Below are positions 8,241 to 55,969 of a stretch of 64,000 nucleotides of DNA, piece by piece. The first letter of the stretch is position 1. Every line of letters starts with the position of its first letter. Below the pieces are notes generated by a model that saw nothing but the letters and a program-made list of their open reading frames with translations, did not search any database and was not told where the DNA came from. Source of the stretch: a virus (Duplodnaviria; Caudoviricetes). A program made the position numbers and the translations under genes. The DNA lies in IMG/VR virus record IMGVR_UViG_3300030708_003042, positions 759 through 64,758 of that record; one strand, 5' to 3'.

Positions 8241-8241
8241 T

Positions 8242-10482: not shown

Positions 10483-11801
10483 TGCCAAAACTCACTGAAC
10501 CTGGTGATATTAAAGATTTTAGTATCAGTTCTAATTCTAAAGATTTTTCAATTGATATCTCACCCAGTGTTGTTGAGTTTAGATATTTTGAAAGTGTCTT
10601 ATCAAACACTGTAACTGCAACAGCAGCTGTTATTGATACTGGTGTGCAGGCAGATAGTAAGATTGGTGAAGGAAGTATAATTGATGCTCTGCCTATTAGA
10701 GGAGGAGAGAGAGTTGATATTATTGTAGTGGATAATTATGGTGAAGAAATTAAATTAGTGCTCTATGTGAATAGAGTAAGAAATGCAAATCCAGGAACAT
10801 CACAAGAGGTATTTTTTATTGACTTTTCCTCTGCAGAATACTTTGCTAATGAACAATTTAGAGTAACAAAGAGATATAAAGATGCTCCCATCTCTACTCA
10901 TGTATCAGATATTAGTAAAGCAATGGGGATTGCAAAGATAGATGTTGATGATACTGCTGGTAACTATAACTTCTATGGTAATGATAGAAAACCTTTCTAC
11001 ATCTTAACTTGGTTAGCATCTAAATCTATTCCAAGTTCCTCTGGACAAGGTACAGGACTTGGTGGTGCTGCAGGATTTATGTTCTATCAAACAAAAGATG
11101 GACACTTCTTTAAGTCAATTGATAATCTACTTGACCAAAGTGCTAAAAAGACTTATGTTTATACAGGAAGCATTGGACTCCCAGATGATGAAGACTATGA
11201 TGGAAAGATACTATCATATAATATAAAAGCAGATATTGATGTTCAACAAAATCTAGCACTGGGTGTTTATAACAATAGAACTATCTTCTTTGATCCAATG
11301 AGTTTTAGTTATGTTGTTCAAGGATTTAATGTTGATCAACAGGAAAGTAAAATTACAACTGCTGGAGATAAAGAAGCATCAGCAGCTAGACTTTTAAACC
11401 CACAATTACTTCAGACACCATCTAGACTCATGTCAAGAGTATTAGATGTGGGTTTTAATCAACCAGGAACTGGTGATGAGCAAATAAAAGCAGTCAAAGA
11501 TGCAGGTCAGTCAAAACCTAATGACAATAGTACAAAGAATCTTGTGCAATCTGTGATGAGATACAATCAATTGTTCACTATACAAACTGAAATTAAAGTT
11601 CCTGGTGATTTTTCTTTAAGGGCAGGTGATGTTGTCAAATGTGTCTTCCCTCAAATTGGACCAGAGGATACTAGTGGTCCAATAAATAATGAAACAAGTG
11701 GTGAGTATTTGGTTGCCCATGTGTGTCATAGAACCACACCTAAAGATACTTACTCAAGTCTCACATTGGTAAGAGATTCATATAGGACAAAGAATGATTG
11801 A
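10482..11801 (+). CDS. Baseplate hub protein, gp27/late-control-D-like
   Basis: FESVLSNTVTA, FMFYQTKDG.FFKSID, I.VPGDFSLRAGD, SG.YLV..VCH motifs; directly before gp5. Confidence 0.65.
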   Translation: MPKLTEPGDIKDFSISSNSKDFSIDISPSVVEFRYFESVLSNTVTATAAVIDTGVQADSKIGEGSIIDALPIRGGERVDIIVVDNYGEEIKLVLYVNRVRNANPGTSQEVFFIDFSSAEYFANEQFRVTKRYKDAPISTHVSDISKAMGIAKIDVDDTAGNYNFYGNDRKPFYILTWLASKSIPSSSGQGTGLGGAAGFMFYQTKDGHFFKSIDNLLDQSAKKTYVYTGSIGLPDDEDYDGKILSYNIKADIDVQQNLALGVYNNRTIFFDPMSFSYVVQGFNVDQQESKITTAGDKEASAARLLNPQLLQTPSRLMSRVLDVGFNQPGTGDEQIKAVKDAGQSKPNDNSTKNLVQSVMRYNQLFTIQTEIKVPGDFSLRAGDVVKCVFPQIGPEDTSGPINNETSGEYLVAHVCHRTTPKDTYSSLTLVRDSYRTKND

Positions 11802-37483: not shown

Positions 37484-38194
37484 ATGGCAATAGGAAGACC
37501 CGTATCATTAACTAGTAATGTAGCTTCTAAGTCCATCAGTGTAACAGCAACTGAGAATCAGACTCTCTTTACTGTAACTGGTGGATATAGAATTAATCAG
37601 ATTGCTGTCTTTCGTAATGGTGCCAGATTAGTTGATGGACAAGATTTCACTGCAAGAGATGGTGCAACTGTCACTCTAATTCAAGGTGCAAACCTTAATG
37701 ACACTCTTGAATTTCAAATCTTTGATGATTTTAGAGTTGCTGATGCAATTGTTTCAGCAGAAGCATCACAGACAATTCTAGGTGATTTAACAGTCACTGG
37801 CACATTAAGTGGTGCCACTGTAACTGGTGCTGCAATTGGTATTCAATCTGCTGGAACAGTAGTTGGTGCTGCTAAGACACTGAACTTCATTGGCACTGGT
37901 AATACCTTTGCAATGAATGGAGATACTGTTGATATCAGTATCTCTGGAGGTGGTGGAGGAGGAGGACTTGGCACTGCCATTAACTATAGTGATAATACTG
38001 CATCTCCATTCAGTTTCATTGATAGTGAAACTCAAGTAACTGAAGACTTACTATTAGATGCAACCAATGCTGGTAAGTCAGGTTCATATGTAGTATCTGT
38101 TATTCCAAATGTCACAGTCAATGCTGGTGTTGCAGTAACCGTTGGTGCTGGCAAGACCATGGTTATTGATGTACTTCAGATTGGTGATATTTAA
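37484..38194 (+). CDS. Fibre-associated protein
   Basis: Shares motifs with 31063; preceded by TAAATAACTAAAAA (37461). Confidence 0.6.
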   Translation: MAIGRPVSLTSNVASKSISVTATENQTLFTVTGGYRINQIAVFRNGARLVDGQDFTARDGATVTLIQGANLNDTLEFQIFDDFRVADAIVSAEASQTILGDLTVTGTLSGATVTGAAIGIQSAGTVVGAAKTLNFIGTGNTFAMNGDTVDISISGGGGGGGLGTAINYSDNTASPFSFIDSETQVTEDLLLDATNAGKSGSYVVSVIPNVTVNAGVAVTVGAGKTMVIDVLQIGDI

Positions 38195-39990
38195 TGTCTG
38201 AATTAAGAGTTTCAAGTATTAGATCCAGAACAGGTACTACTCCAAAGGCACCTGATGGTATAAGTGTTAGTGGTGTTGCAACTGCTACTACATTTAATGG
38301 TAATCTGACTGGCAATGCAACAGGTAATGTTACAGGCAATGTAACTGGCAATGTTACTGGTAATATTTCTGGAGCTACTGGAACCTTTAGTGGTAATGTA
38401 TCAATTGGTGGTACATTAACTTATGAAGAAGTATCTGCTGTTGATTCTGTTGGCGTCATAACAGCAAGAGGTGGTATTAGAGTTGGTGCAGGGCAAAGCA
38501 TCTCTGCTGTAAGTGGGATTGTAACCTACTATGGTGATGGATCAAAACTATCTGGTGTAGAATCTGGAGTATTTAATTTTATTGCTAGTGGTAATATTGG
38601 TAATGGTGATACAGTAATTGTTAACACAGATGGAACCGTTAGTGTTGTTGCTGAAACAGTTTCTCCCAATCCAAGTGTTGGAACTCCTGCTGTATTTGAA
38701 TCTGCTTATAGTGAAAATATGGCAGTAGTATATGACTCTACTAATGATAAAGTAGTAATTGCTTATAGAGATAAAGGAGATCCATCACAACGTGGAACAG
38801 CAGTTGTTGGAACCGTATCTGGTACTAGTATTAGTTTTGGCACTCCTGTTGTATTTGAATCTGGTCAATCAGAATTCATTACAGCAACATATGACTCTAC
38901 TAATAGTAAAGTAATTATTGCTTATCAGGATAATGGTGATTCTAACAAAGGAAAGGCTATTGTAGGAACTGTAAGTGGTACTAGTATTAGTTTTGGTTCT
39001 GCTGCTGTATTTGAATCTGGTACTACTACTTATATCTCAGCAACATATGATTCTACTAATGAAAAAGTTGTAGTTATTTACAGGGATAATGATAACTCAT
39101 ATTATGGAACAGCAGCTGTAGGCACTGTTAGTGGTACATCAATTAGTTTTGGTTCTCCTGTTGTATTTTACTCTGGTAGTTTTGATTTTGGTGCAGCAAC
39201 ATTTGATTCCAACAGTAATAAAGTAGTTATTGCTTATAGAGATGGTTCAGACTCTGATCATGGAAAAGCAAGAGTTGGAACTGTAAGTGGAAATAGTATA
39301 AGTTTTGGTTCTGCTGTTGAATATAATGCTGGCAATACTCCATACAACGCACTGATATTTGACTCAACTAATAATAAAGTAGTTCTTGCTTATCGAGATG
39401 TTCCAAACTCTAACTATGGAATAGCAAGAGTTGGAACTGTAAGTGGAAATAGTATAAGTTTTGGTTCTGAAGTAGTATTTGAGTCTGGTGAATCCAATTA
39501 CATTCAAATGAATTATGATTCTACCAATCAAAAAGTACTACTCACTTATAGAGATGAGGATAACTCTGGTAATGGAACATCTGTTGTAGGCACGGTTAGT
39601 GGTACATCAATTAGTTTTGGTACTCCTGTTGTATTTTTTACTGGTGCTCCAAGTTCTCTGGGCGCAGCATATGTTGGCAGTAATAAAATTGTGAATGCTT
39701 ATCCAGATAATACAGATAATAACTATGGAAAAGCAGTTGTTTTTACCTCCAGTAGTGTAAGTACCAACCTTACATCAGAAAACTATATTGGTATTGCAGG
39801 AGAGGCAATCTCTAATGGAGCAACTGGTAAGATTAATATTGCCACTGGAATTAATGAAGGTCAAACAGGACTAACCACGGGTCAAAAATATTATATTCAG
39901 AACAATGGATCTCTTGCTACATCTGCAGGAAGTCCATCAGTGGTAGCAGGTACAGCAATTTCTTCTACAAAAATTATTGTCAAAGGATAA
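38194..39990 (+). CDS. Fibre with 7-repeat beta-propeller head, paralogue A
   Basis: GNVT stalk repeats, seven ~52-aa YDST..KVVIAY.D....G.A.VGTVSG.SISFG repeats. Confidence 0.75.
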   Translation: MSELRVSSIRSRTGTTPKAPDGISVSGVATATTFNGNLTGNATGNVTGNVTGNVTGNISGATGTFSGNVSIGGTLTYEEVSAVDSVGVITARGGIRVGAGQSISAVSGIVTYYGDGSKLSGVESGVFNFIASGNIGNGDTVIVNTDGTVSVVAETVSPNPSVGTPAVFESAYSENMAVVYDSTNDKVVIAYRDKGDPSQRGTAVVGTVSGTSISFGTPVVFESGQSEFITATYDSTNSKVIIAYQDNGDSNKGKAIVGTVSGTSISFGSAAVFESGTTTYISATYDSTNEKVVVIYRDNDNSYYGTAAVGTVSGTSISFGSPVVFYSGSFDFGAATFDSNSNKVVIAYRDGSDSDHGKARVGTVSGNSISFGSAVEYNAGNTPYNALIFDSTNNKVVLAYRDVPNSNYGIARVGTVSGNSISFGSEVVFESGESNYIQMNYDSTNQKVLLTYRDEDNSGNGTSVVGTVSGTSISFGTPVVFFTGAPSSLGAAYVGSNKIVNAYPDNTDNNYGKAVVFTSSSVSTNLTSENYIGIAGEAISNGATGKINIATGINEGQTGLTTGQKYYIQNNGSLATSAGSPSVVAGTAISSTKIIVKG

Positions 39991-41872
39991 TAAATAACTA
40001 AAAATATAAATCCATGTCAGGTTTAAGAGTAAGTAATTTGAGAGGAGTGGCAGGATCTGCTCCTACATTTCCTGATGGTGTTGTTGTCACTGGTGTTTCT
40101 ACTGCTACTACATTTGATGGTAATCTAACTGGTAATGTTACAGGTAATGTAGTTGGAAACGTAACAGGTGATGTTACTGGTAATATTACAGGAACCACTG
40201 GTTCATTTAGTGGTAATGTTTCTGTGGGTGGAACTTTAACATATAATGATGTAACCAATGTTGATTCTATTGGCGTTGTTACTGCAAGAGGTGGTATTAA
40301 AGTTGGCGCAGGACAGAGTATTTCTGCTGTAAGTGGAATAATTACGTATTATGGAGATGGATCTCAACTTCAGGGTGTTGAATCTGGTGTATCTAATTTT
40401 GTAGCAAGTGGCACTATTGCTAATGGTGATACAATCATAATTAACACTGATGGAACAGTCTCTAGTGCAAGCACATCTGCTGTTACCCAATCTGCTGGAG
40501 CAGGATATAGGTCCTCTCCAGGAGGAACTGGTGCATATACTGACTATGCTTATATTGGTAATAATAAAATAGTAGCAGTATATGCTGATGGTAGTAACAA
40601 TCTTTATGGAACAGCAGTTGTAGGAACTATCAATGGTAATACTATTACTTTTGGCACCCCTCAGGTTTTTCATTCACACAGAGCAAACTACACCAGTGTA
40701 GTATATGACTCTGGAAATGATAGGTTTGTAATATCTTTTGGTGATGGAAACCAAGGTGGTGCTACAACTGGAAATGGAAAATCAATAGTCTGCTCTGTAA
40801 ATGGAACAACAATTACCTTTGGAACAACCACACAATTCCATGGAGGAAATACTGCATGGATTGATTCAACTTATGATTCTACTAGTGGTAAAATAGTCAT
40901 TTCTTTTGAAGATGCTTCACAGAATTGGGGAAAGGTATGTATTGGAGAGATAACTGCTGGAACTACAAATATTACTTTTGGGTCTGACACCAAATATCAT
41001 GGAAACAGTAATGTTACCGTCTCTGCAGTGCAATTTGATCCAAGCAGTAACAGAATTTTTGTTGCTTTTCGTAATTGGGGGGATAATAATAATTGTTGGG
41101 GTGTTGTGGGGACAATTAGTGGGACAAGTGTTAGTTTTGGAACTGCAACAGTAACAAACACTACTGCTTTTGGTGACGTCACATCAGCGTATGATCCTAA
41201 CTCACAAAGAATATCAATAGCATACTATGATGCAAGAGACAATGATATTGGCAAATCATATACTGTTTCAATAAACCCCTCTAATAATACATACTCAGCT
41301 AGTTCTACAACTACTTTTTCAAGCTCTGTTCTTTTAGGAACTAGACACGTTTATGATACTCTTGCTCAAAAATATGTAGTATTTTATAGGGATAGAACTG
41401 CACAAAAAGCGTATGCAAAAGCAGGAACTTATAATAGTAGTGACAATACCATAACATGGGAGAGCACTCAAACATTAGTTTTAAATGAGGATGTGAACCC
41501 TCAAACTGCTACTTATGACACAGACAACAATAAACCAATTGTTGGTATCAGTAGTGCTAGTAGTATTGTATATGCACACGTGTTTACAACTGGTAGAATA
41601 GGGACTAATCTTACAGCAACCAACTACATTGGTATTGCAGGAGAGGCAATTTCTAATGGAGCAACTGGTAAGGTTACTATTTTTGGTGGAACTAATTCAG
41701 GACAAACTGGTCTTACAACAGCTCAAACATACTATGTCCAAACTGATGGATCATTATCAACAACAGCAGGTAATCCATCTGTAGTTGCTGGTACTTCTAT
41801 CTCCTCCACAAAAATCCTAGTTAAAGCATAATAAATAATTAAAAATATAAATCCATGTCAGGTTTAAGAGTA
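39991..41872 (+). repeat. 41 bp direct repeat (40/41) covering late promoter plus gene start (39991-40031, 41832-41872)
   Basis: Base-by-base comparison. Confidence 0.9.
40014..41831 (+). CDS. Fibre with 7-repeat beta-propeller head, paralogue B
   Basis: Same N- and C-termini as A; seven diverged repeats. Confidence 0.75.
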   Translation: MSGLRVSNLRGVAGSAPTFPDGVVVTGVSTATTFDGNLTGNVTGNVVGNVTGDVTGNITGTTGSFSGNVSVGGTLTYNDVTNVDSIGVVTARGGIKVGAGQSISAVSGIITYYGDGSQLQGVESGVSNFVASGTIANGDTIIINTDGTVSSASTSAVTQSAGAGYRSSPGGTGAYTDYAYIGNNKIVAVYADGSNNLYGTAVVGTINGNTITFGTPQVFHSHRANYTSVVYDSGNDRFVISFGDGNQGGATTGNGKSIVCSVNGTTITFGTTTQFHGGNTAWIDSTYDSTSGKIVISFEDASQNWGKVCIGEITAGTTNITFGSDTKYHGNSNVTVSAVQFDPSSNRIFVAFRNWGDNNNCWGVVGTISGTSVSFGTATVTNTTAFGDVTSAYDPNSQRISIAYYDARDNDIGKSYTVSINPSNNTYSASSTTTFSSSVLLGTRHVYDTLAQKYVVFYRDRTAQKAYAKAGTYNSSDNTITWESTQTLVLNEDVNPQTATYDTDNNKPIVGISSASSIVYAHVFTTGRIGTNLTATNYIGIAGEAISNGATGKVTIFGGTNSGQTGLTTAQTYYVQTDGSLSTTAGNPSVVAGTSISSTKILVKA

Positions 41873-43636
41873 GATAATTTAAAAGGGACTCCCACATTTC
41901 CTGATGGTGTTGTTGTTACTGGTGATGTATCATCCACAAGTTTTAGTGGCAATCTGACAGGTAATGTAACTGGAATAGTAACTGGTAATGTCACTGGTAA
42001 TGTCACTGGTAATATTGCAGGAACTACAGGATCATTCAGTGGTAATGTATCAGTTGGTGGCACTTTAACATATGGTGATGTAACCAATGTTGATTCTGTT
42101 GGTGTCATAACAGCAAGAGGTGGAATTAAAATTGGTGCAGGACAAAGTGTTAGTGCAGTAAGCGGAATAATCACATATTACGGGGACGGATCACAACTTG
42201 GTGGCATTGAATCTGGTTTTTCTAACTTTGTAGCAAGTGGAACTATTCCTAATGGTGCAAATGTGGTTGTCAACACAGACGGAACTGTTAGTGTCATAAC
42301 TCAAACAGGTTCTGCTGATCCAAGTGTTGGTACTCCTGTTGTATTTCAATCTTCTGCAACTTATTACACTGGAGCAACATATGACTCTACTAATGGTAAA
42401 GTTGTGCTTGTTTATAGAGATGCTGGAGCTAGTAGGGGAAAAGCAATTGTAGGGACTGTATCTGGCACTAGTATTAGTTTTGGTTCTGCTGTTGAATTTC
42501 ACTCTTCTGCGTCACAAGACAATCAAGTAGAATTTGTTGGTAGTGGTAAAGTAGTTGTTGCTTATCAGGAAGGTGGAAGCCCGTACTATGGAAAAGCAAG
42601 AGTTGGAACCATATCTGGTAATTCAATTAGTTTTGGCACTGAAGTCACATTTGAATCTGGTAATACTACAAATATAGGAATGGCATATGACTCCTCCAAT
42701 GATAGGATAGTCATTGCTTATAGGGACGGCGGAAATTCAAGTTATGGAACAGCAGTTGTTGGAACCGTATCTGGTACTAGTATTAGTTTTGGCACTCCTG
42801 TTGTATTTGAATCTGCTGGTATATATTATGCCTCAGCAACATATGACTCTGCTAATGGTAAGGTAGTTATTGCTTATAGAGATACTGGAAATTCTGATTA
42901 TGGAACAGCGATTGTAGGAACTGTAAGTGGAACTAGTATTAGTTTTGGTTCTGCTGCTGTATTTGAATCTGGACAGGCTAATTACATAACATCAACATAT
43001 GACTCTACCAATCAAAAAGTAATAATTGCATATGGTGATTGGGGAAACAACTCTGGTGCTGGAACAGCAGTTGTAGGAACTGTATCAGGCACTTCAATAA
43101 GTTTTGGTACTCCTGTTGTATATGAGACTTCTCAATCTGCTTTTAATGCAGCAGTATATGACTCTGCCAAGAAAAAAGTAGTTATTGCTTTTAGGGATAA
43201 TAATAACTCTTCTTATGGAACAGCAATTGTAGGAACTGTATCTGGTGACTCAATTAGTTTTGGCACTCCTGTTGTATTTGAATCTGCACAGTCTAATTAC
43301 CAGGTAGCAGCATATGATTCCACTAATGAAAAAGTAGTTATTGCTTATTATGATGCTGGAAACTCTGATTATGGAACAGCAGTAGTCTTTAGTTCTAATA
43401 CTTTAGTAACCAACTTAACTGCAAGCAACTATATTGGTATTGCAGCAGAAGCAATTTCTAATGGAGCAACTGGTAAGGTTAATGTTGCTGGTGGAGTCAA
43501 TTCAGGACAAACTGGTCTTACAACAGCCAGAACATATTATGTTCAAGGAGATGGATCTCTTGGCACATCTGCGGGTGATCCATCTGTAGTTGCTGGCACT
43601 TCTATCTCTAGTACACAAATCATTGTCAAGGGATAA
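41855..43636 (+). CDS. Fibre with 7-repeat beta-propeller head, paralogue C
   Basis: Same architecture; repeats close to A at the DNA level. Confidence 0.75.
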   Translation: MSGLRVDNLKGTPTFPDGVVVTGDVSSTSFSGNLTGNVTGIVTGNVTGNVTGNIAGTTGSFSGNVSVGGTLTYGDVTNVDSVGVITARGGIKIGAGQSVSAVSGIITYYGDGSQLGGIESGFSNFVASGTIPNGANVVVNTDGTVSVITQTGSADPSVGTPVVFQSSATYYTGATYDSTNGKVVLVYRDAGASRGKAIVGTVSGTSISFGSAVEFHSSASQDNQVEFVGSGKVVVAYQEGGSPYYGKARVGTISGNSISFGTEVTFESGNTTNIGMAYDSSNDRIVIAYRDGGNSSYGTAVVGTVSGTSISFGTPVVFESAGIYYASATYDSANGKVVIAYRDTGNSDYGTAIVGTVSGTSISFGSAAVFESGQANYITSTYDSTNQKVIIAYGDWGNNSGAGTAVVGTVSGTSISFGTPVVYETSQSAFNAAVYDSAKKKVVIAFRDNNNSSYGTAIVGTVSGDSISFGTPVVFESAQSNYQVAAYDSTNEKVVIAYYDAGNSDYGTAVVFSSNTLVTNLTASNYIGIAAEAISNGATGKVNVAGGVNSGQTGLTTARTYYVQGDGSLGTSAGDPSVVAGTSISSTQIIVKG

Positions 43637-43663
43637 TACATAAATAACTAAAAAATTCTAGAA

Positions 43664-44386
43664 ATGTCAAGAATAAGGGCTAATAGATTTACAAACAAAT
43701 CAGGAAATGGTGCTCCTCTGTTTACAGATGGTGTAAATGTAGTTGGTCTCACCAGTCTTTCCAATGTTACTGCAGGTGTTTCTACAGTTACAACTTTAAA
43801 TGCTTCTTCTGGATCTTTTACTGGTAATGTTACAGCTACTGGTAATGTTACAGCTGATAATGTTGCAGGAACCACTGGTACTTTTAGTGGCAATGTATCT
43901 ATTGGTGGAACATTAACGTATGAAGATGTCACCAATGTAGATTCTGTTGGTATTGTTACTGCAAGGGGTGGATTAACCACTCAAAAACTGCTGAAAGAAG
44001 AAGTAAATGTAGTTGCAAATAAATTAAGTGCTGCTCCAAACATCTATCTTGAGAATGGATGTGTTCATATATTTACGACTACTGAAACAACCACATCAAC
44101 ACCTGCCATTAAATATAATGCATCCACAAACCTAAAAGACAAGATGTCTGTGGGTGAGTCAGTAGTAGTGACACTTATCACCACTGCTGCTGCGGGTGCT
44201 TATTCTGAGCACATTACTATTGATGGTGATGCAGTAACAGAGAATTGGATAGGTGGTAGTGCTCCAACTGCTGGAGGAAGTTCTGGTGTAGATATTCACA
44301 CCTTTACCATCATTAAGGTTGCATCATCTGGTACAACTGATCAACAATTAACTGTCATTGCTAATCATAGTAAGACTTCTGTTTGA
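43664..44386 (+). CDS. Fibre stalk/adapter protein (pair with 44399)
   Basis: TLTYEDVTNVDSVG motif; NWIGGSAP..GGSSGVDI.TFTIIK C-domain. Confidence 0.7.
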   Translation: MSRIRANRFTNKSGNGAPLFTDGVNVVGLTSLSNVTAGVSTVTTLNASSGSFTGNVTATGNVTADNVAGTTGTFSGNVSIGGTLTYEDVTNVDSVGIVTARGGLTTQKLLKEEVNVVANKLSAAPNIYLENGCVHIFTTTETTTSTPAIKYNASTNLKDKMSVGESVVVTLITTAAAGAYSEHITIDGDAVTENWIGGSAPTAGGSSGVDIHTFTIIKVASSGTTDQQLTVIANHSKTSV

Positions 44387-44398
44387 TAGGAGAATATA

Positions 44399-46441
44399 AT
44401 GTTAGATTTATTTGCAAAAAAAGAAGCACCCATTCAAGGCATGATGGGATTGGGTGGTGGTGTTCCAAGTAGATTATTAACTCTTGCTTCTGGTGAGATT
44501 ACATATGTTGACGACGTGTTCAGCACGTTTTTGTGGGAAGGAGATGGTGGATATAACCTGAGCCCAGCAGCAGCAACAGTTACCGTTGACAATGGCATTG
44601 ACTTGTCAGGCGAAGGCGGCTTAGTTTGGCTCAAGAACAGAGATGACTCTTACAAACATTGGTTGTTTGATACTGAACGTGGCGGCCAATATGCTTTGAG
44701 TTCTAATGCCAGCAGCGCACAACAGGATGGTGCCGCTACAAACAGAGATTTAACTTTTAATTCTACTGGTTTTGTAATTGGTGAAGATGATAGTGGCGGC
44801 GGATTAAATAGGCGAGGGGAAGATCATGCCTCTTGGACCTTCCGCAAATGCCGTGGATTCTTTGATGTAGTTACTTACACATCTCAAAGTGGTGTCACTG
44901 CGATTAACCATAATCTAGGTTCTGTTCCTGGATGCATCATGGTTAAAAAATTGAATGGTAGTGCATCTTGGCAAGTCTATCATCGTTCTTCAGGTGCAGG
45001 TAAAGAATTTGAACTGGATGGTACTGACCGTGAACGTACAAACGGGGCTTTCCCTTCAACACCTACTTCTACACAGTTTTTCATTAACGCTGCTAATAAT
45101 AATGTTTTTGGAACTGTAGGAGATCAATTTGTTGCATATCTTTTTGCACACAATGATGGTTCATTTGGTGAAGATTCAGATGAGGCAGTCATTAAGTGTG
45201 ACAGTTATACTGGGACACAATCAGAAGATACTGAAATTAATGTTGGGTTTGAACCTCAGTGGATTCTTATTAAAAACGCTTCATCCAATTCTACTGACTG
45301 GGTTGTAGTTGATACAATGAGAGGACTTCCAGTTGGATCAGATAGCGAAGTTCTGAAAGCAAATAGTTCTGGTACTCCTTCATCATATAGAGCTGCAGCG
45401 TTAACGCCAACAGGATTTAAGTTGGGGCAAGGAGTTACTAGCGTTAACAGATCTGGAGATACATACATCTACATGGCAATTCGTCGTCCCCATAAACCAC
45501 CCGAAGCAGGAACTGAGGTGTTTAAACCGTTCAGCCTTTCCGCTGGTGAAGGTCAAGATACTTTTATCTCTACGGGTTTTGATGTTGACACTTTTATTTA
45601 CGCTAAAAAAGGTAACGGTCTTTTTATTTTTGGCGACAGACTGAGAGGGAAAAAAGGCGGTGGAGATTTGCGATCAGATAATAACAGCGTTGAAGACACA
45701 AATACAGGTTCGTTTTTCTTAGATCAGAGTCGTGGAGCAAAGGTTGATTATTCAGGTGGACATAATTACAGTGCTCCTGCTGCAACAGATGAATCTTATG
45801 TCCGTTATTTTCTACGCCGTGCTCCTGGATTTTTTGATGTTGTGACTTACAGTGGCTCAAATTCTGCACAAAATATCTCACACAATCTTGGTTCCAAACC
45901 TGCACTGATTATCTGTAAGAGAAGAAATTCAACTGGTAATTGGCAAGTTTATGCAGATGTTCCAGCAGGGGGTGCTACAAAATATATGATGCTGGATGAT
46001 ACTGGAATTTTTAACACTAACAGTAATCGTTGGAATAATACTGAACCAACAGCAACACAGTTTACGGTTGGTACTTACTCTGATTTAAATACAAGTGGTG
46101 GTACATACATTGCATATCTCTTTGGCAATTTGGATGGAATATGTAAAATAGGACAATACACCGGAACTGGTAATGATATAACCATTGATTGTGGTTTTAA
46201 TCCAAGATTTATTATGATAAAACAATGCACTGGTCAGGGTGATGGTTGGTATGTAATTGATTCCGCTCGTGGAATTAATGCTGGTAATGATCCTTGGCTT
46301 AGATTTAATCAGGCTTATCAAGAAATAACAAACACAGATATTGTGGATCCAACCTCAGGTGGATTTATTGTTCAAGCAGGGGGTGGTTCGCGTGTTAATG
46401 ATGCAGATGGACGTAAGTACTTGTATTGGGCTATTGCATAA
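44399..46441 (+). CDS. Adhesin/tip protein with tandem duplicated domain
   Basis: KKEAPI..GLGGG N-terminal tag; repeated PGFFDVVTY.G...HNLG..P..I..K motifs; ends YLYWAIA. Confidence 0.7.
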   Translation: MLDLFAKKEAPIQGMMGLGGGVPSRLLTLASGEITYVDDVFSTFLWEGDGGYNLSPAAATVTVDNGIDLSGEGGLVWLKNRDDSYKHWLFDTERGGQYALSSNASSAQQDGAATNRDLTFNSTGFVIGEDDSGGGLNRRGEDHASWTFRKCRGFFDVVTYTSQSGVTAINHNLGSVPGCIMVKKLNGSASWQVYHRSSGAGKEFELDGTDRERTNGAFPSTPTSTQFFINAANNNVFGTVGDQFVAYLFAHNDGSFGEDSDEAVIKCDSYTGTQSEDTEINVGFEPQWILIKNASSNSTDWVVVDTMRGLPVGSDSEVLKANSSGTPSSYRAAALTPTGFKLGQGVTSVNRSGDTYIYMAIRRPHKPPEAGTEVFKPFSLSAGEGQDTFISTGFDVDTFIYAKKGNGLFIFGDRLRGKKGGGDLRSDNNSVEDTNTGSFFLDQSRGAKVDYSGGHNYSAPAATDESYVRYFLRRAPGFFDVVTYSGSNSAQNISHNLGSKPALIICKRRNSTGNWQVYADVPAGGATKYMMLDDTGIFNTNSNRWNNTEPTATQFTVGTYSDLNTSGGTYIAYLFGNLDGICKIGQYTGTGNDITIDCGFNPRFIMIKQCTGQGDGWYVIDSARGINAGNDPWLRFNQAYQEITNTDIVDPTSGGFIVQAGGGSRVNDADGRKYLYWAIA

Positions 46442-48304
46442 AAGCATAAATAACTAAAAAGTAGATAAGATGTCAAAGTTACAAGTTGACAATATTGTTA
46501 ATAAGGCAGACAATGGTGCCCCCACTCTTTCAAGGGGTGCTATTGTTACTGGTGTTGCCACTGCCACCACATTTAATGGTAACTTGATTGGTAATGTAAC
46601 TGGCACTGCAACTACTGCAACCACTGCCACCACTGCTACTAATGCGCAGGGATTAACTGGAACACCAAACATCTCAGTAGGTACAATTTCAGCAAGTGGT
46701 AGTGTCTCTATTGGTGGTACACTGACATATGAAGATGTAACTAATGTTGACTCTGTTGGTATTGTCACAACAAGAGGTGGTCTGACCACCCAAAAGATGC
46801 TGAAGGAAGAATTTAATACTACTGCTGGTAAGTTAAGTGCTAACTTAAATATTGACTTATCAAATGGGATGGTGCATTTATTCACCACTCAAGAAGATGC
46901 AACCTCAGTTCCAAATATCAGATATAGTTCATCAGAATCACTGAACTCAAGAATGGCAGTTGGTGAGACTGTATCTGTTACAATAATTACCACTGCTGCT
47001 GCAGGTGGTTATTCAACTGGTATTACTATTGATGGTAATGCTAATGGACAGAACTCATATACTCTCTCTACTAATTGGACTGGTGGAGCTGCACCTGCTG
47101 CAGGTGGTGCAAGTGGTGTAGACATTTATGCATATGGTATCATGAAGACTGCTGATAAAACATTTACAATTATTGCAAGTCAAACAAAGACATCTGCTTG
47201 AGGGGGATAAGTGATGAAAGAACATCATAAGAAAGAATCTCCAATTATCTCCTTGCTTGGATTTGGTGGAGGTGGGACTGGCACTGCTTTTGGTGGTGTT
47301 GCTGGAGGTCCAAAAACATATGTTGATGATGTTTTTGCACCATATGTTTATACTGGTGACAATAGTGTAGCTACACAAACATTCAACACCGGACTTGATA
47401 TGTCTGGTGAAGGTGGTATGATATGGTTTAAAAGTAGAAGCAATTCTCAAGCAGCTCGTATTCTTGACACAGTTCGTGGTGCAAATGAATCTTTGATTCC
47501 ACACAGCGACACAGACAGCGGCGGTTTAGGTGCAGATGGATTGACCTTTTTAAGTAATGGATTTTCTCTTGGTTGGACTGGAGGTGACCTTGATGCTCCA
47601 AATGATTATATTTCTTGGTCATTTCGTAAAGCACCAGGGTTCTTTGATATAGTTACTTGGACCGGCAATGGAGTTGATGAGCGTTTAATCCCCCATAATC
47701 TAGGTTCAACACCAGGGATGATTGTGGTTAAATGCACAAGTAATAATGAAAATTGGATTGTATGGCACAGAAATATAGCTACAACCAGTTACTTACAATT
47801 AAATACAACTAATTCCCTTTTAACTGGAATTAAACCTTGGGGGACTAATACTCAGACAATTAACAGCACTCATTTTAGTGTTAATAATTATGGAAGTGTG
47901 AATAGTAATGGAAGAACATATGTTGCTTATGTCTTTGCTCATGATGATCAACAGTTTGGCACTGGTGGTAATGAAAGTATTATTGAGTGTGGACAATACA
48001 CAGGATCTGGATCAGTTGGAAAGACTGTCAATTTGGGTTTTGAACCCCAATTTGTTATGGTTAAAAGCACACAGCAATCAAGACCCTGGGTGATGATTGA
48101 TACCGTTCGTGGTATGCCCAGAGATGGAGATGGAGTTCGTTTACTTGCAAATGATAGTGCTGGAGATGTTACATCAGCAAGTTTTTTAGCACCAACTCCC
48201 ACAGGATTTGAGGTTACTCAACAAAACACTTATGTAAACACCTCAGGTGAAAACTACATCTACATGGCAATTCGTCGCCCCAATAAACCACCTGAAGCAG
48301 GAAC
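45464..48304 (+). repeat. 50 bp repeat (47/50) at the inter-domain hinge of adhesins 44399 and 47211 (45464-45513, 48255-48304)
   Basis: Base-by-base comparison. Confidence 0.85.
46470..47201 (+). CDS. Fibre stalk/adapter protein (pair with 47211)
   Basis: Paralogue of 43664. Confidence 0.7.
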   Translation: MSKLQVDNIVNKADNGAPTLSRGAIVTGVATATTFNGNLIGNVTGTATTATTATTATNAQGLTGTPNISVGTISASGSVSIGGTLTYEDVTNVDSVGIVTTRGGLTTQKMLKEEFNTTAGKLSANLNIDLSNGMVHLFTTQEDATSVPNIRYSSSESLNSRMAVGETVSVTIITTAAAGGYSTGITIDGNANGQNSYTLSTNWTGGAAPAAGGASGVDIYAYGIMKTADKTFTIIASQTKTSA

Positions 48305-49184
48305 AGATGTGTTTGCTATAGATGTAAATACTCAATCAGAACCTGAGTATGTTTCTAACTTTGTTGTTGACTGGGCTTTCCACAGAAACGTTGCATACAC
48401 AGATAACTTTGAAAGCTATTCACGCCTGACAGGGTTTAATAAGCTTGAGATAAATCGACTCTCAGCACAAAGCAATAATAATGCTGCTAAGTTTGATTTT
48501 ATGAATGGTTGGGGAGATAACCTAGCAAATGATACTAATTATCGATCATGGATGTTCAAGCGTGCCCCTGGATTCCTTGATATTGTTTGTTACAACGGAA
48601 ATGGATCTAATAGAACTATTAATCACAACCTTGGAAAAGTACCTGAAATGATATGGGTCAAGAAAAGAGAATCATCAGGAGCCTGGGCTGTATATCATTC
48701 TGCCATTGGACCAACAAAATATCTTCAAGTGAACAGTCCTAACCAACCATCAACATATAATGGTGTATGGAATGATACTGCCCCAACAAGCACAGTTTTT
48801 TCACTTGGTTCTGATGGTTATGTTAATGGTGGTTCTAGTAATAAATATATCGCCTATCTCTTCTCCTCTTTACCTGGTATAAGTAAGGTTGGTAGTTACG
48901 CAGGAACTGGTAATAATATAGATGTTGACTGTGGTTTTGCTAGTGGTGCTAGATTTGTTCTGATTAAAGCAACTCATGACAACAGTACAGAGTGGTTCAC
49001 ATGGGATTCTGTTCGTGGAATTGTTGCTGGTAATGATCCTTATCTTCTCTTTAGTAGCAACGCAGCTCAAGTAACTAATACTGACTACATTGACCCTCTA
49101 AGCACTGGATTTACAGTTACCTCCAATGCTCCTGCTGCACTAAATGCCGTTGGAGGTGATTATATCTTCCTTGCTATTGCCTAA
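47211..49184 (+). CDS. Adhesin/tip protein, paralogue of 44399
   Basis: KKESPI..GFGGG tag; same tandem domain; ends YIFLAIA. Confidence 0.7.
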   Translation: MMKEHHKKESPIISLLGFGGGGTGTAFGGVAGGPKTYVDDVFAPYVYTGDNSVATQTFNTGLDMSGEGGMIWFKSRSNSQAARILDTVRGANESLIPHSDTDSGGLGADGLTFLSNGFSLGWTGGDLDAPNDYISWSFRKAPGFFDIVTWTGNGVDERLIPHNLGSTPGMIVVKCTSNNENWIVWHRNIATTSYLQLNTTNSLLTGIKPWGTNTQTINSTHFSVNNYGSVNSNGRTYVAYVFAHDDQQFGTGGNESIIECGQYTGSGSVGKTVNLGFEPQFVMVKSTQQSRPWVMIDTVRGMPRDGDGVRLLANDSAGDVTSASFLAPTPTGFEVTQQNTYVNTSGENYIYMAIRRPNKPPEAGTDVFAIDVNTQSEPEYVSNFVVDWAFHRNVAYTDNFESYSRLTGFNKLEINRLSAQSNNNAAKFDFMNGWGDNLANDTNYRSWMFKRAPGFLDIVCYNGNGSNRTINHNLGKVPEMIWVKKRESSGAWAVYHSAIGPTKYLQVNSPNQPSTYNGVWNDTAPTSTVFSLGSDGYVNGGSSNKYIAYLFSSLPGISKVGSYAGTGNNIDVDCGFASGARFVLIKATHDNSTEWFTWDSVRGIVAGNDPYLLFSSNAAQVTNTDYIDPLSTGFTVTSNAPAALNAVGGDYIFLAIA

Positions 49185-49208
49185 TATAAATAACTAAAAA
49201 GTCATAAG

Positions 49209-50309
49209 ATGTCAAGAGCACGCGACCTATCAAGACTTACTAACCCAGTAAATTTTACTATTGATTCAACCAATAATAGGATTGGTCTTAACAGTACAAG
49301 TCCTACAGCAAAATTAAATGTTGCTGGTATTGTTAGTGCTACTGAATTTTATGGTGATGGTTCTAATCTGGAAGGTGTAGCTAGTGCTGGACTTGGCACA
49401 GCATTAGGAGAAACTGACCCTCTTGCTGTTATATACTTTACTGATCAGCAATTAAATGTTAGTTCAAGCACACAAGTCACTGTCCCAGACAGTTCAGATG
49501 TAGCATATACACAATATTCTGAAATTGTTGTTGATGATAGCAATGATTTAATTATTAATGATGGTGATGATTTTGTACCTGATATTTTAGGTCTTTCAAC
49601 AACAGGAATGAGTGCGCCAGCAGGTGCAGGAAATGATGTTTTTAATACTGTATATGCAGACTTTATTGAGGATAGAGCAGGAAGAAGTGCTCCAACATTT
49701 AATCATGGTGCCAATGTAACTGGTGTTGTTACTGCAACAAAATTTGTTGGAGATGCCTCTGGTCTAACAGGAGATGGTTCTGGTCTAACCAATATTGTTG
49801 GCACTGGATCTGGTATAGTAGTTAAGAATAATGGGTCCTCTGTTGGTACTGCTGGCACAATTAACTTCAGCACAAACCTTGATGTTTCTGCAATTTCTGC
49901 TGGTGTAGTTACTGTAACTTCATCCAATAGTAGAACAAATGTATCTGGAACAACAGGATCTGTTGGAGCAGCTGCTACAACTAACTTAAATATTACAGCA
50001 TTTAAATCTTATGGGTTGTTGAAGGTAGGAATCAGTAGTGCTGCATGGGTCAGACTTTATGTTGATGCAGACTCAAGAACTTCAGATTCTACTAGATCTT
50101 ATCTGACAGATCCTGTACCAGGGTCTGGGTTGATTGCAGAGGTTCGCACTGAAACTGCTGGTGTAAGCACTTTCTCTATGACACCAGGAGTAATTGGATG
50201 GAATAATGACACCACACCTGCAACAACTGTCTATGCTGCAGTTACTAATAATGAATCATCTGCTGCAGCTATCACTGTCACATTAACTGTGGTTAAGATG
50301 GAGGATTAA
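49209..50309 (+). CDS. Fibre-like protein coupled to the subtilase
   Basis: MSRARDLS start, IGLNSTSPTAKL.V.G, F.GDGS.LT repeats; TAATG overlap with the next gene. Confidence 0.6.
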   Translation: MSRARDLSRLTNPVNFTIDSTNNRIGLNSTSPTAKLNVAGIVSATEFYGDGSNLEGVASAGLGTALGETDPLAVIYFTDQQLNVSSSTQVTVPDSSDVAYTQYSEIVVDDSNDLIINDGDDFVPDILGLSTTGMSAPAGAGNDVFNTVYADFIEDRAGRSAPTFNHGANVTGVVTATKFVGDASGLTGDGSGLTNIVGTGSGIVVKNNGSSVGTAGTINFSTNLDVSAISAGVVTVTSSNSRTNVSGTTGSVGAAATTNLNITAFKSYGLLKVGISSAAWVRLYVDADSRTSDSTRSYLTDPVPGSGLIAEVRTETAGVSTFSMTPGVIGWNNDTTPATTVYAAVTNNESSAAAITVTLTVVKMED

Positions 50310-51973
50310 TGAACGAATACATTGTAACTTGCAGATCTAGAGCAGACTTAGAGGATCTTTACAATGACATGGAGACTCCTGGAGGTTCTCTATACATTCC
50401 TGACAGAGAAGTTGAATTAGTTCACAGAAGAGCGATTAGTCGCAATACTCATTATATGCTGACTGAAGAAGAGGCAGCAGAAATTCGTAAGGATGAAAGA
50501 GTAATTGCTTGTGAACGTTTAGCAAAAGACAGAGGCATTGTTCCAGAATATTTTTGGACACAGACAGGTGACTTTGAAAAAACAACAGGAACTTTGCAGT
50601 CTGATGACAAGAATTGGGGACTATATAGAGTAATTGAAGGTGCTACAGTTTCTAACTGGGGGAGTGATAGTACCTCAGAGATATCAAATAGAACTATTAC
50701 TACTACAGCATCAGCAAAAAATGTTGATGTTGTAATTGTTGATTCTCACATCAATCCAAATCATCCAGAGTTTGCAGTCAATCCTGATGGAAGTGGTGGT
50801 AGTAGAGTGAATCAATTTAATTGGTTCTCGTATAATTCTGTATTGGGTTATGGATCTAATGGAACTTATACTTACAGCAGTTCTGGTGCTTCACCAAATA
50901 GTAATCATGGAACTCATGTAGCAGGAACAGTTGCAGGTAATACACAAGGATGGGCAAGAGATGCTAACATCTATAACATGGCTTTCAGTGATTCCTTGTC
51001 TGGTGTGACTGATTGGGATGAAAAGTTATGGGATTATCTTCGTCACTTTCATAAGAATAAAGCAATAAACTCTGCTACTGGAAGAAGAAATCCAACAATC
51101 ACTAATCATAGTTGGGGATATTCCTATAGTAATATCAATCTTTCAACACTGACCTCAGTTAGATATAGAGGAACAGTAACTAGTCTTAGTGGGACAGATT
51201 CTCAGAAGAAAACTGTTTTGGAAGATAATGGTGTTCCAGTTCCTGCTAACACTTATCTTTATAAAACTCCTGCTAGAGTCGCTTCAGTAGATGCTGATAT
51301 CCAGGATGCTATTGCTGATGGTGTGATTGTTATTTCATCTGCTGGAAACAGTTATTGGAACTGTGACACTTCAAGTGGTAATGACTATGATAATTACACA
51401 TCTGGTTCTGGTGGAACTGTGTATCATTCAAGAGGTTCAACACCAGGTTCATCTGATAATGTTATTTGTGTAGGATCTATTGGTTCTAAAGTTGCTGAAT
51501 ACAAATCAAACTTTAGTAATTGGGGTGAACGTGTAGATATCTGGGCACCTGGTAGTGATATTATTTCTGCTGTTTATGATCAGTCAAGTGCTAACTCTGC
51601 TGGTTATGGTTCTTTACCACAAGATCCTAGAAATAGTTCTTATTACTTAGCATCAATCAGTGGAACAAGTATGGCATCTCCTCAGGTTTGTGGAGTTATT
51701 GCTTGTCTTGCAGAATCTGAACCAAATATAACTCAAGCACAAGTGCGTGAATATTTTTCTGAAAATTATTTCTTACAAGATATTGGAACTACTGGAACCA
51801 TAAATCACAGCAGTTATGAGGCACTGGGGGATAGTGCTAATAAATATCTTTTCTATTTTCAAAAGAGAAAACAAACAGGATCTCTTCAGCAAACTATTGT
51901 TGGACCCAGAAACAATAATACTTCTGGAGTAAAATATCCAAGGACAAATAGGATGGTAACAAATCGCCAATAA
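50309..51973 (+). CDS. Subtilisin-family (S8) serine protease with N-terminal prodomain
   Basis: Catalytic triad motifs VDVVIVDS, NHGTHVAGT, SGTSMASPQV; also SAGNS and SNWG..VDIWAPG. Confidence 0.9.
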   Translation: MNEYIVTCRSRADLEDLYNDMETPGGSLYIPDREVELVHRRAISRNTHYMLTEEEAAEIRKDERVIACERLAKDRGIVPEYFWTQTGDFEKTTGTLQSDDKNWGLYRVIEGATVSNWGSDSTSEISNRTITTTASAKNVDVVIVDSHINPNHPEFAVNPDGSGGSRVNQFNWFSYNSVLGYGSNGTYTYSSSGASPNSNHGTHVAGTVAGNTQGWARDANIYNMAFSDSLSGVTDWDEKLWDYLRHFHKNKAINSATGRRNPTITNHSWGYSYSNINLSTLTSVRYRGTVTSLSGTDSQKKTVLEDNGVPVPANTYLYKTPARVASVDADIQDAIADGVIVISSAGNSYWNCDTSSGNDYDNYTSGSGGTVYHSRGSTPGSSDNVICVGSIGSKVAEYKSNFSNWGERVDIWAPGSDIISAVYDQSSANSAGYGSLPQDPRNSSYYLASISGTSMASPQVCGVIACLAESEPNITQAQVREYFSENYFLQDIGTTGTINHSSYEALGDSANKYLFYFQKRKQTGSLQQTIVGPRNNNTSGVKYPRTNRMVTNRQ

Positions 51974-52038
51974 ATTATTAGTGGTGAACTACTTATTCCT
52001 TGCTATTGCTTGATATAAATAACTAAAAAGAAGTCAAG

Positions 52039-53712
52039 ATGTCACAGATTAATGTTGACAATATAAAAGGAAGAACAGGGGGTGCTGTATCAGCACCTGC
52101 TGGTATTGTTGTGACTGGTGTTGGTACATTCACTGGTAATGTTTCAATTGCAGGAACATTAACTTATGAAGATGTAACTAATGTAGACTCTGTTGGTATC
52201 ATCACAGCAAGAAATGGTATCAATGTAGCTGGTGGCACTATAACTGGTGATGGTTCTGGATTAACTGGTGTTGCACCATCATTTAGTGGTATTGCATCTG
52301 GGTCTTTATCTAATGGACAAACAGTAATTATTACACATGATGGTAAAGTAACAGGTATCACACGCACTGACCTACCTACACCAGAAGAAGGGCAAATTGC
52401 TACTTTTGAATCTGGATCAACTAGTGGTGCTTCCATGCAAGGTGTGTATGATCCTGATACTGGAAGAGTTATAGTTGTATATTGTGATGCTGATGCTTCT
52501 AATGCTGGAAAGGCAGCTGCAGGATTAGTATCTTCTGATGGATCAATAACATTTGGATCTGAAGCAACTTGGCACTCAGGAGCTACTGAAAATGTTGGAG
52601 TAGCATATGATACTGCAAATGATAGGATAGTTGTTTGTGGTAGAGATAATGGTGCTGCTAATGCAATTTATAATGTTGGTTCACTAGTTGGTAGCACTAT
52701 TACATTTGGATCATATGGAGATTTATCAACTGATGGTTGTAGAGAAGTTAAAGTAGCATATGACACTAATGCAGATAGAGTTCTCTTCATTTATCAAGTA
52801 GGAACTGGAAGCGCGGGAAAATGCCGTGCAGGTGAAGTTTCAGGACTCACAGTATCTTTAGGAGCTGAAGCTACATTTGAGTCAGGTGCTATTCTCGCCA
52901 ATATGAATTCAGTTACATATCATGCTGCTGCTCAAAAAAATGTCATTACATATACAATGGGATCTGGAGGAAGTTATGATGGACGTGCTAAAGTAGCAAC
53001 AATTGATCCTAGTGATAATTCTGTTACTTTTGGAACACATGGAACATTCCACTCAGCATCAAATGTAACTGATTGTGATTCAGTTTATGATCCAGATAGT
53101 GAAAGAATAGTAATACATTTTATAGCTGATAATGTAATTAATGCCATTGTTGGAGAAGTAACTGGAACTAATATAACTTTTGGTTCTAAAATAGTAGCTT
53201 ATAACACTCAGGCATATAATTTAGATTCAACTTATGATACAACTAATGATAAAGTTGTTCTCATGTGTAGAAATGCTAGTGACGGCAGAGCTCAAATGCT
53301 TGTAGGAAATGTAAATAATTCAGATAATTCTATTAGTATTGCTTCTACTACTCAGATTCACAGTGGATCTGCTACCAGAATTGGCGGTACATTTGATTCC
53401 AATACTGGTCATGTGGTATTTTTCTTTAATGATGGTGATGATGGTCAGAAAGGAAAAGCTAAAACATATAAAACAATTACTGCTACTACTAATTTGACAG
53501 ATGGAAACTTTCTTGGTTTCTCTAATGCTGCATATAATGATGGTCAAACTGCAAAGATTCAAGTTGTAGGTGCTATTGATGATGCTCAAACTGGTTTGAC
53601 AACTGGTGCAAAGCATTATGTTCAGAAAAATGGATCATTAGCAACCAATGCAGACTCTCCAAATGTTGAGGCAGGTACTGCACTTTCTGCCACCCAGATT
53701 CTGATCAGGTAA
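52039..53712 (+). CDS. Fibre with 7-repeat beta-propeller head, paralogue D
   Basis: TLTYEDVTNVDSVG stalk, seven diverged repeats, conserved TNLT...GLTTG..YVQ..GSL C-terminus. Confidence 0.75.
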   Translation: MSQINVDNIKGRTGGAVSAPAGIVVTGVGTFTGNVSIAGTLTYEDVTNVDSVGIITARNGINVAGGTITGDGSGLTGVAPSFSGIASGSLSNGQTVIITHDGKVTGITRTDLPTPEEGQIATFESGSTSGASMQGVYDPDTGRVIVVYCDADASNAGKAAAGLVSSDGSITFGSEATWHSGATENVGVAYDTANDRIVVCGRDNGAANAIYNVGSLVGSTITFGSYGDLSTDGCREVKVAYDTNADRVLFIYQVGTGSAGKCRAGEVSGLTVSLGAEATFESGAILANMNSVTYHAAAQKNVITYTMGSGGSYDGRAKVATIDPSDNSVTFGTHGTFHSASNVTDCDSVYDPDSERIVIHFIADNVINAIVGEVTGTNITFGSKIVAYNTQAYNLDSTYDTTNDKVVLMCRNASDGRAQMLVGNVNNSDNSISIASTTQIHSGSATRIGGTFDSNTGHVVFFFNDGDDGQKGKAKTYKTITATTNLTDGNFLGFSNAAYNDGQTAKIQVVGAIDDAQTGLTTGAKHYVQKNGSLATNADSPNVEAGTALSATQILIR

Positions 53713-55246: not shown

Positions 55247-55957
55247 ATGTCCAGAATTAGAGCTGATAGAATTGTTGATAGGGCAGCCACTGGTGCTCCA
55301 CTGTTCCCTAATGGTGCAGTTATAACTGGTGTAGCAACTGCAACCACTTTTGATGGTGCATTGAGTGGTAATGCCACATCTGCAACCACTGCAACCACTG
55401 CAACAAATGCGCAGGGATTGACAGGTAATCCTAATATATCTGTTGGAACTATCACAGCAAGTGGTAATGTATCAGTTGGTGGTACATTGACCTATGATGA
55501 TGTCACTAATATTGACTCTGTTGGTATTGTCACTGCAAGATCTGGTGCTGACCTTCAAGGATTTAAGGTTGAGGAAGGAAAACAAGATGGTTCTACAAGT
55601 TTAAATGGAGAATTTGATTTTCTCTTAGAGAATGGTCATGTACAAAGATTCTCTGCAGCTACTGGTGGAAACTACTTCCCTGATTTTAAGGTAAGTGGTT
55701 CAAAATCATTGAGTTCAATTATGGATGTTGGTGATGCTGTATCTGTAATGTTGATAGTTGCTTCATCATCACATTATTGCACTACAGGAATCAAAATTGA
55801 TAATAGTACATCAAACTTAGATATTGATTGGGTTGGTGGTGCTGCACCTTCTGCTGCTAATGGATCAGGATTTGATATCTACTCATTTACTATTATTAAA
55901 ACAGCATCTACACCTGCTTATCACATCATTGGTAATGCAGTTGGTGTGGCAGGTTGA
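55247..55957 (+). CDS. Fibre stalk/adapter protein (pair with 55970)
   Basis: TLTYDDVTNIDSVG; DWVGGAAP...SGFDIYSFTIIK; late box at 55221. Confidence 0.7.
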   Translation: MSRIRADRIVDRAATGAPLFPNGAVITGVATATTFDGALSGNATSATTATTATNAQGLTGNPNISVGTITASGNVSVGGTLTYDDVTNIDSVGIVTARSGADLQGFKVEEGKQDGSTSLNGEFDFLLENGHVQRFSAATGGNYFPDFKVSGSKSLSSIMDVGDAVSVMLIVASSSHYCTTGIKIDNSTSNLDIDWVGGAAPSAANGSGFDIYSFTIIKTASTPAYHIIGNAVGVAG

Positions 55958-55969
55958 TAGGGAGGTAAT

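Follow-up and report, generated by a model that had tools for sequence, protein, structure and literature searches.

Short identity tracts between the blades of tandem propeller paralogues in a marine T4-like phage, probable marks of recent gene conversion

Introduction

The host range of cyanophages shapes the mortality of Prochlorococcus and Synechococcus, and the receptor-binding proteins of marine cyanophages are, to our knowledge, largely unknown. Here, we analyze four paralogous genes, A to D, on a 64,000-nucleotide stretch of viral DNA (the window; positions 759 to 64,758 of IMG/VR virus record IMGVR_UViG_3300030708_003042). Each gene encodes seven repeat units (blades, named by gene and position as A1, C3, and so forth) between conserved termini, and short tracts of DNA are identical or nearly identical between blades of A and C and between two blades of A. 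An earlier reading of the sequence, made without database searches (the original prediction), took these tracts as sites at which recombination or gene conversion shuffles blades within and between genes, giving an antibody-like combinatorial set of receptor-binding faces. Our comparison with related loci indicates that the tracts probably record recent ectopic gene conversion over short stretches, in which blades of tandem paralogues were paired by conventional recombination without a dedicated diversity generator.

Results and Discussion

Three identity tracts connect blades of A and C

A count of YD/FD anchors gives seven for every one of the four paralogues (Table 1), in agreement with the predicted seven repeats between conserved termini. 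The units of B and D are much more diverged, as had also been noted: a hidden Markov model (HMM) of the unit picks up only four and six of them, respectively, with low scores. The three tracts have exactly the lengths, offset, and spacing originally described. Tract 1 is a maximal exact match of 71 bp between A and C, tract 2 matches at 61 of 62 positions with exact runs of 20 and 41 bp, and both lie at an offset of 3952 bp, pairing units 1 and 2 of A with units 3 and 4 of C and thus confirming a shift of two blades. The loops between these two tracts differ, GQSEFIT in A versus AGIYYAS in C. Tract 3 repeats 47 bp within A. All three tracts are confined to framework codons, and no loop is carried along.

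A Sawyer-type permutation test on the 12 full A/C units (codon-aligned, 108 polymorphic sites, 2000 permutations) singles out the same three pairs. A1 and C3 share a run of 39 concordant sites, which was never reached in 2000 permutations (global P < 1/2000), while the runs of A4–A5 (25 sites) and A2–C4 (23 sites) have global P values of 0.0135 and 0.04. These are runs of identity beyond the overall divergence of the units, the pattern by which gene conversion is recognized.

Repeats with a period of 156 bp are a known hazard for short-read assembly, and an assembler that threads near-identical repeats could yield chimeric blades. However, the window and two further assemblies from other samples, made with different assemblers, agree within 1–4 differences over 5–6 kb, all tracts included. 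Contig L036 (SPAdes) differs at 4 of 6153 positions across the A-B-C region, contig L037 (MEGAHIT, a Tara run) at 1 of 5196, and both hold both copies of every tract. Moreover, a patch rather than a crossover would require two assembly switches inside 71 bp, and for a relative, L028 (a long-read contig) and L031 (from short reads) agree with each other as well. Since the tracts are reproduced in independent assemblies, we reject the assembly artefact that the original prediction had allowed for as extremely improbable. The exact B protein recurs on other contigs as well. Exact-pattern scans of the viral contig and metagenome contig collections for the tracts or a chimeric junction returned nothing, although close relatives of the window may be absent from both collections.

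The lineage is nearly clonal over positions 37484–43636 in at least three marine metagenome assemblies. Its next relatives are 7–8% diverged at the nucleotide level, and the population structure looks discrete.

Table 1. Position of the paralogues, identity tracts, and adjoining features in the window.
Feature	Position	Strand	Remarks
236-aa fibre-like gene	37484..38194	+	Open reading frame list; PHROG 18345 'tail fiber protein', E 3.9e-18
Paralogue A, 598 aa	38194..39990	+	Anchor aa 1-162, predicted 7-bladed propeller aa 163-520, C-terminal module aa 521-598
Tract 1, A copy, blade A1 framework	38793..38863	+	71/71 versus 42745-42815; putative recipient of conversion from C3
Tract 2, A copy, blade A2 framework	38959..39020	+	A orthologues have the same state; putative donor type
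Tract 3, blade A4 framework	39267..39313	+	47 bp identical to A5
Tract 3, blade A5 copy	39423..39469	+	156-bp spacing from the A4 copy
A/B intergenic spacer with T4-late-promoter-like motifs	39988..40013	+	One mismatch to TATAAATA
Paralogue B, 605 aa	40014..41831	+	Same termini as A, diverged 7-unit core; relatives hold a different cassette there
Paralogue C, 593 aa	41855..43636	+	7 units; orthologues at 92% amino acid identity
Blade-length C3/C4 patch including loop AGIYYAS	42745..42910	+	Allele 1, present in the window, L034, and L035
Tract 1, C copy, blade C3 framework	42745..42815	+	Putative donor
Tract 2, C copy, blade C4 framework	42911..42972	+	Putative recipient; without three states common to all seven other C-type genes
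Paralogue D, 557 aa	52039..53712	+	Truncated anchor, diverged 7-unit core, D-type C-terminal module

Orthologues resolve the direction of the probable exchanges

Relatives of the locus were obtained by exact-protein look-up; a locus search with a single protein gave only distant loci. The set comprises A orthologues on L029, L028, and L031 (92–93% nucleotide identity), C orthologues on L028 and L030–L033 (93%), and C-type cores on L034 and L035.

In tract 1, A1 of the window agrees with its own C3 at 71 of 71 positions and with C3 of L034 and L035 at 69, but with its own three orthologues at only 61–63. These orthologues share 8–10 states that differ from the window, and the GGAACC within the tract is a derived state that occurs only in the two window copies. 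The orthologue pattern implies that C3 overwrote at least ~45 bp (45–71 bp) of A1 in this lineage. In tract 2 the direction is reversed. Here, C4 of the window carries A-type states in place of three that are common to the seven other C-type genes, which indicates that A2-type sequence overwrote 22–62 bp of C4. In tract 3, the window has GGA-AAT...ATA (Asn) in A4 and A5 alike, whereas both blades read GG[T/C]-ACT (Thr) in the three orthologues, within which the longest A4/A5 run spans only 21–23 bp. Judging from the available relatives, this derived state, consisting of the Asn codon and flanking synonymous states, appears restricted to the window lineage.

Recipients differ from their own orthologues and match the resident paralogue at the diagnostic sites. 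By the same comparison, the three conversions would have taken place since a split at a synonymous divergence (dS) of ~0.1–0.2, after separation from the relatives 7–8% diverged. Exchange at framework tracts, whether inside gene A or between it and C with the register shifted by two blades, is therefore the part of the original prediction that the orthologue comparison bears out. An older two-blade homology probably underlies this register, as A1-A2 and C3-C4 are 79–83% identical in all genomes. A simple circular permutation of the blade order of A relative to C was considered and rejected, because A4-A5 versus C1-C2 is no better than the nucleotide background.

Frameworks are conserved as protein and free to drift as DNA

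Entropy across 1138 units divides the blade into nearly invariant positions (7–12 and 21–36) and highly variable ones (13, 15, 19, and 42–51). Between orthologues, the ratio of nonsynonymous to synonymous substitution (dN/dS, NG86 method) is 0.77–1.14 in the loops, as pooled values with counts inflated by recombination, compared to 0.19–0.55 in the frameworks and 0.09–0.45 in the end modules. Nonsynonymous changes pile up at unit positions 6, 15–20, 31, and 45–51, while synonymous changes are concentrated in the framework. Thus, the proposed division into variable loops and constant frameworks stands, with dN/dS around 1 in the former; the proposed constancy of framework DNA holds for the encoded protein but not for the DNA itself, where orthologues differ at synonymous sites. 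It follows that selection on DNA does not keep the tracts identical. An origin of the tracts in a constraint at the DNA or RNA level, such as codon use, RNA structure, or a protein-binding site, would fit the fact that they encode the most conserved peptide of the repeat. However, the tracts themselves vary at synonymous sites between orthologues and other blades use different codons for the same peptide, so this explanation is largely refuted and, in our view, very unlikely.

We likewise considered whether a diversity-generating retroelement (DGR) situated elsewhere in the genome acts on the loops, for which the small share of the genome represented here (~31%, by estimate) leaves room. The 64.7-kb record has no match to the reverse transcriptase model RVT_1, the mismatches between A1/C3, A2/C4, A4/A5, and A3/A6 involve all bases in both directions and are not adenine-specific, and the variation is spread over seven blades in at least four genes instead of one C-terminal variable region. 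A retroelement is therefore barely conceivable as the source of loop variation, and the original prediction that the system does without one agrees with the data for this part of the genome.

Blades keep to their gene and position

A FastTree phylogeny of 72 blades from 12 genes (A1–A6 from four genomes, C1–C6 from eight genes) recovers each of the positional classes A1–A6 and C1–C6 as monophyletic (12/12, support 0.875–1.0). Orthologous blades are on average 90–99% identical within their class and at most 83% identical to any other class; paralogous blades of A and C share 58–83% nucleotide identity. The assemblies of the window, L036, and L037, which represent three samples, agree at 99.9% identity over the locus, with no chimeric variant among them.

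These results bear on the idea that the frameworks are recombination sites of a dedicated or selected combinatorial system, in which blades and loops are frequently reassorted into an antibody-like repertoire. Such a system would account for the position of the conversion tracts in frameworks and for their shifted register, for a loop dN/dS near 1, and for a framework-bounded loop patch with two alleles, one of them common to a distant gene (see below). Yet the blades group strictly by gene and position across all 12 genes, an outcome that the original prediction itself had named as a refutation, paralogous blades are far more distant from each other than orthologous ones, the three recent tracts come without a loop, the three samples are nearly identical and free of chimeric variants, and blade number is fixed at 7 or 14. 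We therefore regard a combinatorial system as unlikely, and the antibody-like repertoire of the original prediction is unsupported on the timescale visible here.

Blade number was surveyed in 188 relatives, of which 30 have 7 units (~600 aa) and 117 have 14 (~900 aa, two propellers); counts that are off by one reflect partial closing units. The dominance of 7 and 14 indicates that blade number follows ring closure and is not free to vary. Seeming blade-number variants of 523 and 494 aa on L028 were dismissed as frameshifts of a nanopore contig. Over positions 7465–13600 of this 206-kb nanopore/pilon contig, the orthologues of the 236-aa gene, A, and C all contain frameshifts, and their called lengths are misleading.

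Loop-bearing patches and whole propellers also move

Beyond the tracts, a patch of ~145–166 bp, reaching from the C3 framework to the B-C loop of C4, occurs in C as two alleles. Allele 2 (L028, L030–L033) is 79% identical to allele 1, while the flanks are 95–100% identical. Its loop, ASTRYMQ, is shared with a 921-aa, 14-blade gene on L039 (314–3079) that is otherwise 51% identical. The loop-coding stretch contains an exact run of 43 bp and is ~90% identical over ~85 bp, with only ~70% in the framework upstream. This sharing indicates that loop-bearing patches bounded by conserved sequence do transfer, although rarely. The allele-2 patch (L030:938–1103, and in L039) also carries a CpG-rich ACCCGG inside its loop codons.

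On a larger scale, the genes at the B position of the window and of L028/L031 are 93–100% identical in the first ~400 and last ~135 nucleotides but only 33–67% identical in the core, which marks whole propellers as cassettes swapped between conserved termini. Further, L034 (8173–9774) and L035 (168–1769) encode a 533-aa protein whose core is 93–100% identical in nucleotides to that of C in the window. Its short N-terminus is unrelated, its C-terminal module is of the D type, and the gene occupies the D position just ahead of a 2OG-Fe(II) oxygenase gene. By its sequence, it represents the transplant of a whole head from one gene context into another. Exchange with conserved sequence at its borders, as originally proposed, thus receives support from the C3/C4 patch alleles and the whole-propeller swaps, but it is slow and has the character of ordinary homologous recombination.

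The core of A is predicted to fold into a seven-bladed propeller

AlphaFold2, run with an alignment of 13 sequences, models residues 160–520 of A as an all-beta structure with sevenfold repeat and a predicted local distance difference test score (pLDDT) above 90, while the N-terminal 158 and C-terminal 78 residues are modelled at low confidence. Both terminal modules are probably oligomeric. The top VIA match to A is the propeller of CylK (7ron; Z 37.8, root-mean-square deviation 2.2 Å over 332 aligned residues), followed by YncE (3vgz, Z 34.0) and virginiamycin B lyase (2z2n, Z 30.9), with CylK and YncE covering residues 161–521. Values near Z 29–30 are reached by the PLL and BP39L lectins as well as by many WD40 proteins, and Foldseek aligns the PLL lectins with TM-scores of 0.75–0.78. 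The model thus presents the core of A as a seven-bladed beta-propeller. CylK, YncE, virginiamycin B lyase, and PLL/BP39L have this fold in common with A at a sequence identity of merely 8–12%, and a common fold with known propellers does not establish function.

Sequence searches place the family outside the named propeller groups. A Pfam scan of A–D yielded only Cyclophil_like2, without a significant stretch, and none of the named propeller families (WD40, Kelch, RCC1, NHL, YVTN); no PDB chain matched by sequence at E <= 1, and the C-terminal module had no meaningful sequence match in the PDB. Megablast of A–C against the phage collection gave no match. By tblastn, hits were confined to the N-terminal module, apart from one propeller of Lentibacter phage ICBM2 at 31% identity. 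The family is nevertheless very large, with at least 8000 scored candidates in each of two protein searches, and the ESM Atlas neighbours are viral.

The N-terminal anchor module is common to at least five other genes of the window and holds GNVT-type tetrapeptide repeats and a conserved TLTYEDVTNVDSVG motif. Proteins annotated as tail fibres in Bellamy, P-TIM68, and S-SRM01 are similar to this module, whose PHROG tail-fibre matches are weak. Gene context and fold together suggest that the propeller is probably a host-binding head. In the anchors, the GNVT-type repeats are periodic at 12 bp (38282–38371, 40102–40203, and 41931–42020). Anchor homologues differ by indels of 8–12 residues at these repeats, and stalk length therefore appears to vary through repeat slippage.

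A model for diversification of the binding face

Taken together, the tracts are best explained by ectopic gene conversion, in which C3 would have converted 45–71 bp of A1, A2 would have converted 22–62 bp of C4, and A4 and A5 would have exchanged 47 bp. The first two events have the same shifted register and opposite directions. They may stem from a single ectopic pairing with heteroduplex on both partners, or from repeated pairing at the place where the older A1-A2/C3-C4 homology matches best; the data are compatible with one event as well as with two. General homologous recombination of T4-like phages is the most likely agent, given that replication of T4 is recombination-dependent. Conversions of this kind would homogenize framework DNA and leave the loops in place. 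Diversity of the binding face would instead arise from fast substitution in two loops per blade, from rare replacement of blade-length patches bounded by framework, and from replacement of whole propellers between the conserved end modules.

Several observations weigh against this account. At one site of tract 2, C of the window matches the A genes of L028 and L031 and not A of the window, which weakens the reading as a single event and raises the possibility that the donor was an earlier or a co-infecting A allele. Further, the contig-collection and relative-locus searches did not find a donor for the C3/C4 patch allele of the window: the best hit was 86% by blastn against all fetched loci and 83% in a region-restricted protein search, which was swamped by summed multi-repeat scores. 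Lastly, location in the virion and receptor binding are deduced from gene context and fold, and a placement of the variable positions on one face of the propeller is argued from strand order. In spite of these points, we consider gene conversion between the blades of tandem paralogues the probable origin of the tracts.

Comparison with adhesin and WD40 repertoires

By analogy, the closest known systems appear to be motif-mediated shuffling of T-even gp38 and the fungal HNWD WD40 repeats. In T-even phages, conserved glycine-rich motifs of gp38 flank hypervariable segments, and exchanges in or near the motifs at gp38/g37 create chimeric adhesins (Tetart et al, 1996, 1998, cited in Trojet et al, 2011, PMC3157838). 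As far as that account goes, the locus studied here is similar in being a putative host-recognition locus of the T4 superfamily, in which a conserved scaffold alternates with hypervariable segments and modules are swapped between conserved ends. In contrast to gp38, a small monomeric adhesin with a polyglycine sandwich, the predicted head is a seven-bladed propeller in a fibre-like protein, unrelated in fold and sequence. Moreover, its conserved motifs are seven internal repeats in several tandem paralogues, and consequently exchange can be ectopic and out of register. Consequences for host range have been demonstrated for gp38; for the propeller genes they are putative.

In Podospora anserina, the HNWD/NWD genes (het-d, het-e, het-r) exchange WD40 repeats within and between paralogues and diversify few surface positions (Paoletti et al, 2007, PMC1805685; Chevanne et al, 2010, PMC2873952). 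Both systems have propeller repeats in a paralogous family and repeat exchange within and between genes, as far as these reports describe the fungal genes, and a few positions in each phage repeat may likewise be diversifying. Concerted evolution is dominant in HNWD genes, repeat number is highly variable, and repeat-induced point mutation (RIP) is proposed to add mutations. The phage blades lack the hallmark of concerted evolution, as orthologous blades (90–99%) are closer than paralogous ones (58–83%); additionally, they occur in fixed sets of 7 or 14, and the putatively converted stretches span only 22–71 bp.

The likely mechanism is homologous recombination of the conventional kind, for which T-even adhesins and fungal WD40 repertoires provide documented precedents, and the value of the locus is descriptive and comparative, not conceptual. 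A literature search on cyanophage tail-fibre propellers or gene conversion returned nothing specific. The locus offers a direction-resolved case of change in a putative cyanophage host-binding gene at three levels, namely conversion over tens of base pairs, a blade-length patch, and a whole-head cassette. The propeller family, with its at least 8000 metagenomic relatives and neither a Pfam model nor a solved structure, is a prime candidate for binding heads.

Tentatively, and as a rather speculative extension, the repeated framework might be maintained as a multitude of homology sites, with conversions keeping the blades recombination-competent. If so, co-infecting cyanophages would exchange loop patches and whole heads at a far higher rate than is the case in non-repeat fibres. 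The locus would then parallel the HNWD diversity engine of fungi, but in phages and with an effect on host range in the most abundant phototroph-virus system of the ocean.

Genomic setting of the paralogues

The window covers nearly the whole of the 64.7-kb record and has a GC content of 38%. The structural genes match those of T4-like cyanomyoviruses. Among them, a tail/baseplate protein of 439 aa shares 49% identity with its counterpart in Prochlorococcus phage P-TIM68 and 47% with the proteins of two Synechococcus phages, S-B05 and RB11-B. Paralogues A–D sit within a long run of baseplate and fibre-like genes on one strand, and A is translationally coupled to the preceding 236-aa gene through an ATGA overlap. 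An exact late-promoter-like motif, TATAAATA, lies at 52014–52021, 18 nucleotides upstream of the D start; a spacer of the A/B type with a one-mismatch version precedes B and C and is found again before other fibre genes. A–D are thus likely to be part of a larger, late-expressed set of tail-fibre-like paralogues in an uncultured marine T4-like cyanomyovirus. Each combines the N-terminal anchor with a predicted seven-bladed propeller and a conserved C-terminal module of ~80 aa.

The surrounding genes show a related architecture. Positions 43664–49184 and 55247–58006 hold three gene pairs, each consisting of a ~240-aa anchor-module protein followed by a protein of ~660–680 aa. Two of the larger members are of the DUF7483 type (44399–46441, by Pfam, and 47211–49184, as called on contig L036), and the third (55970–58006) is glycine-rich. 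While the N-terminal anchor is fused to the head in A–D, it forms a separate adapter gene in these three pairs. Inside the fibre block, a subtilase (Peptidase_S8, E 6e-29) is encoded at 50309–51973, directly 3' of a 366-aa fibre-like gene.

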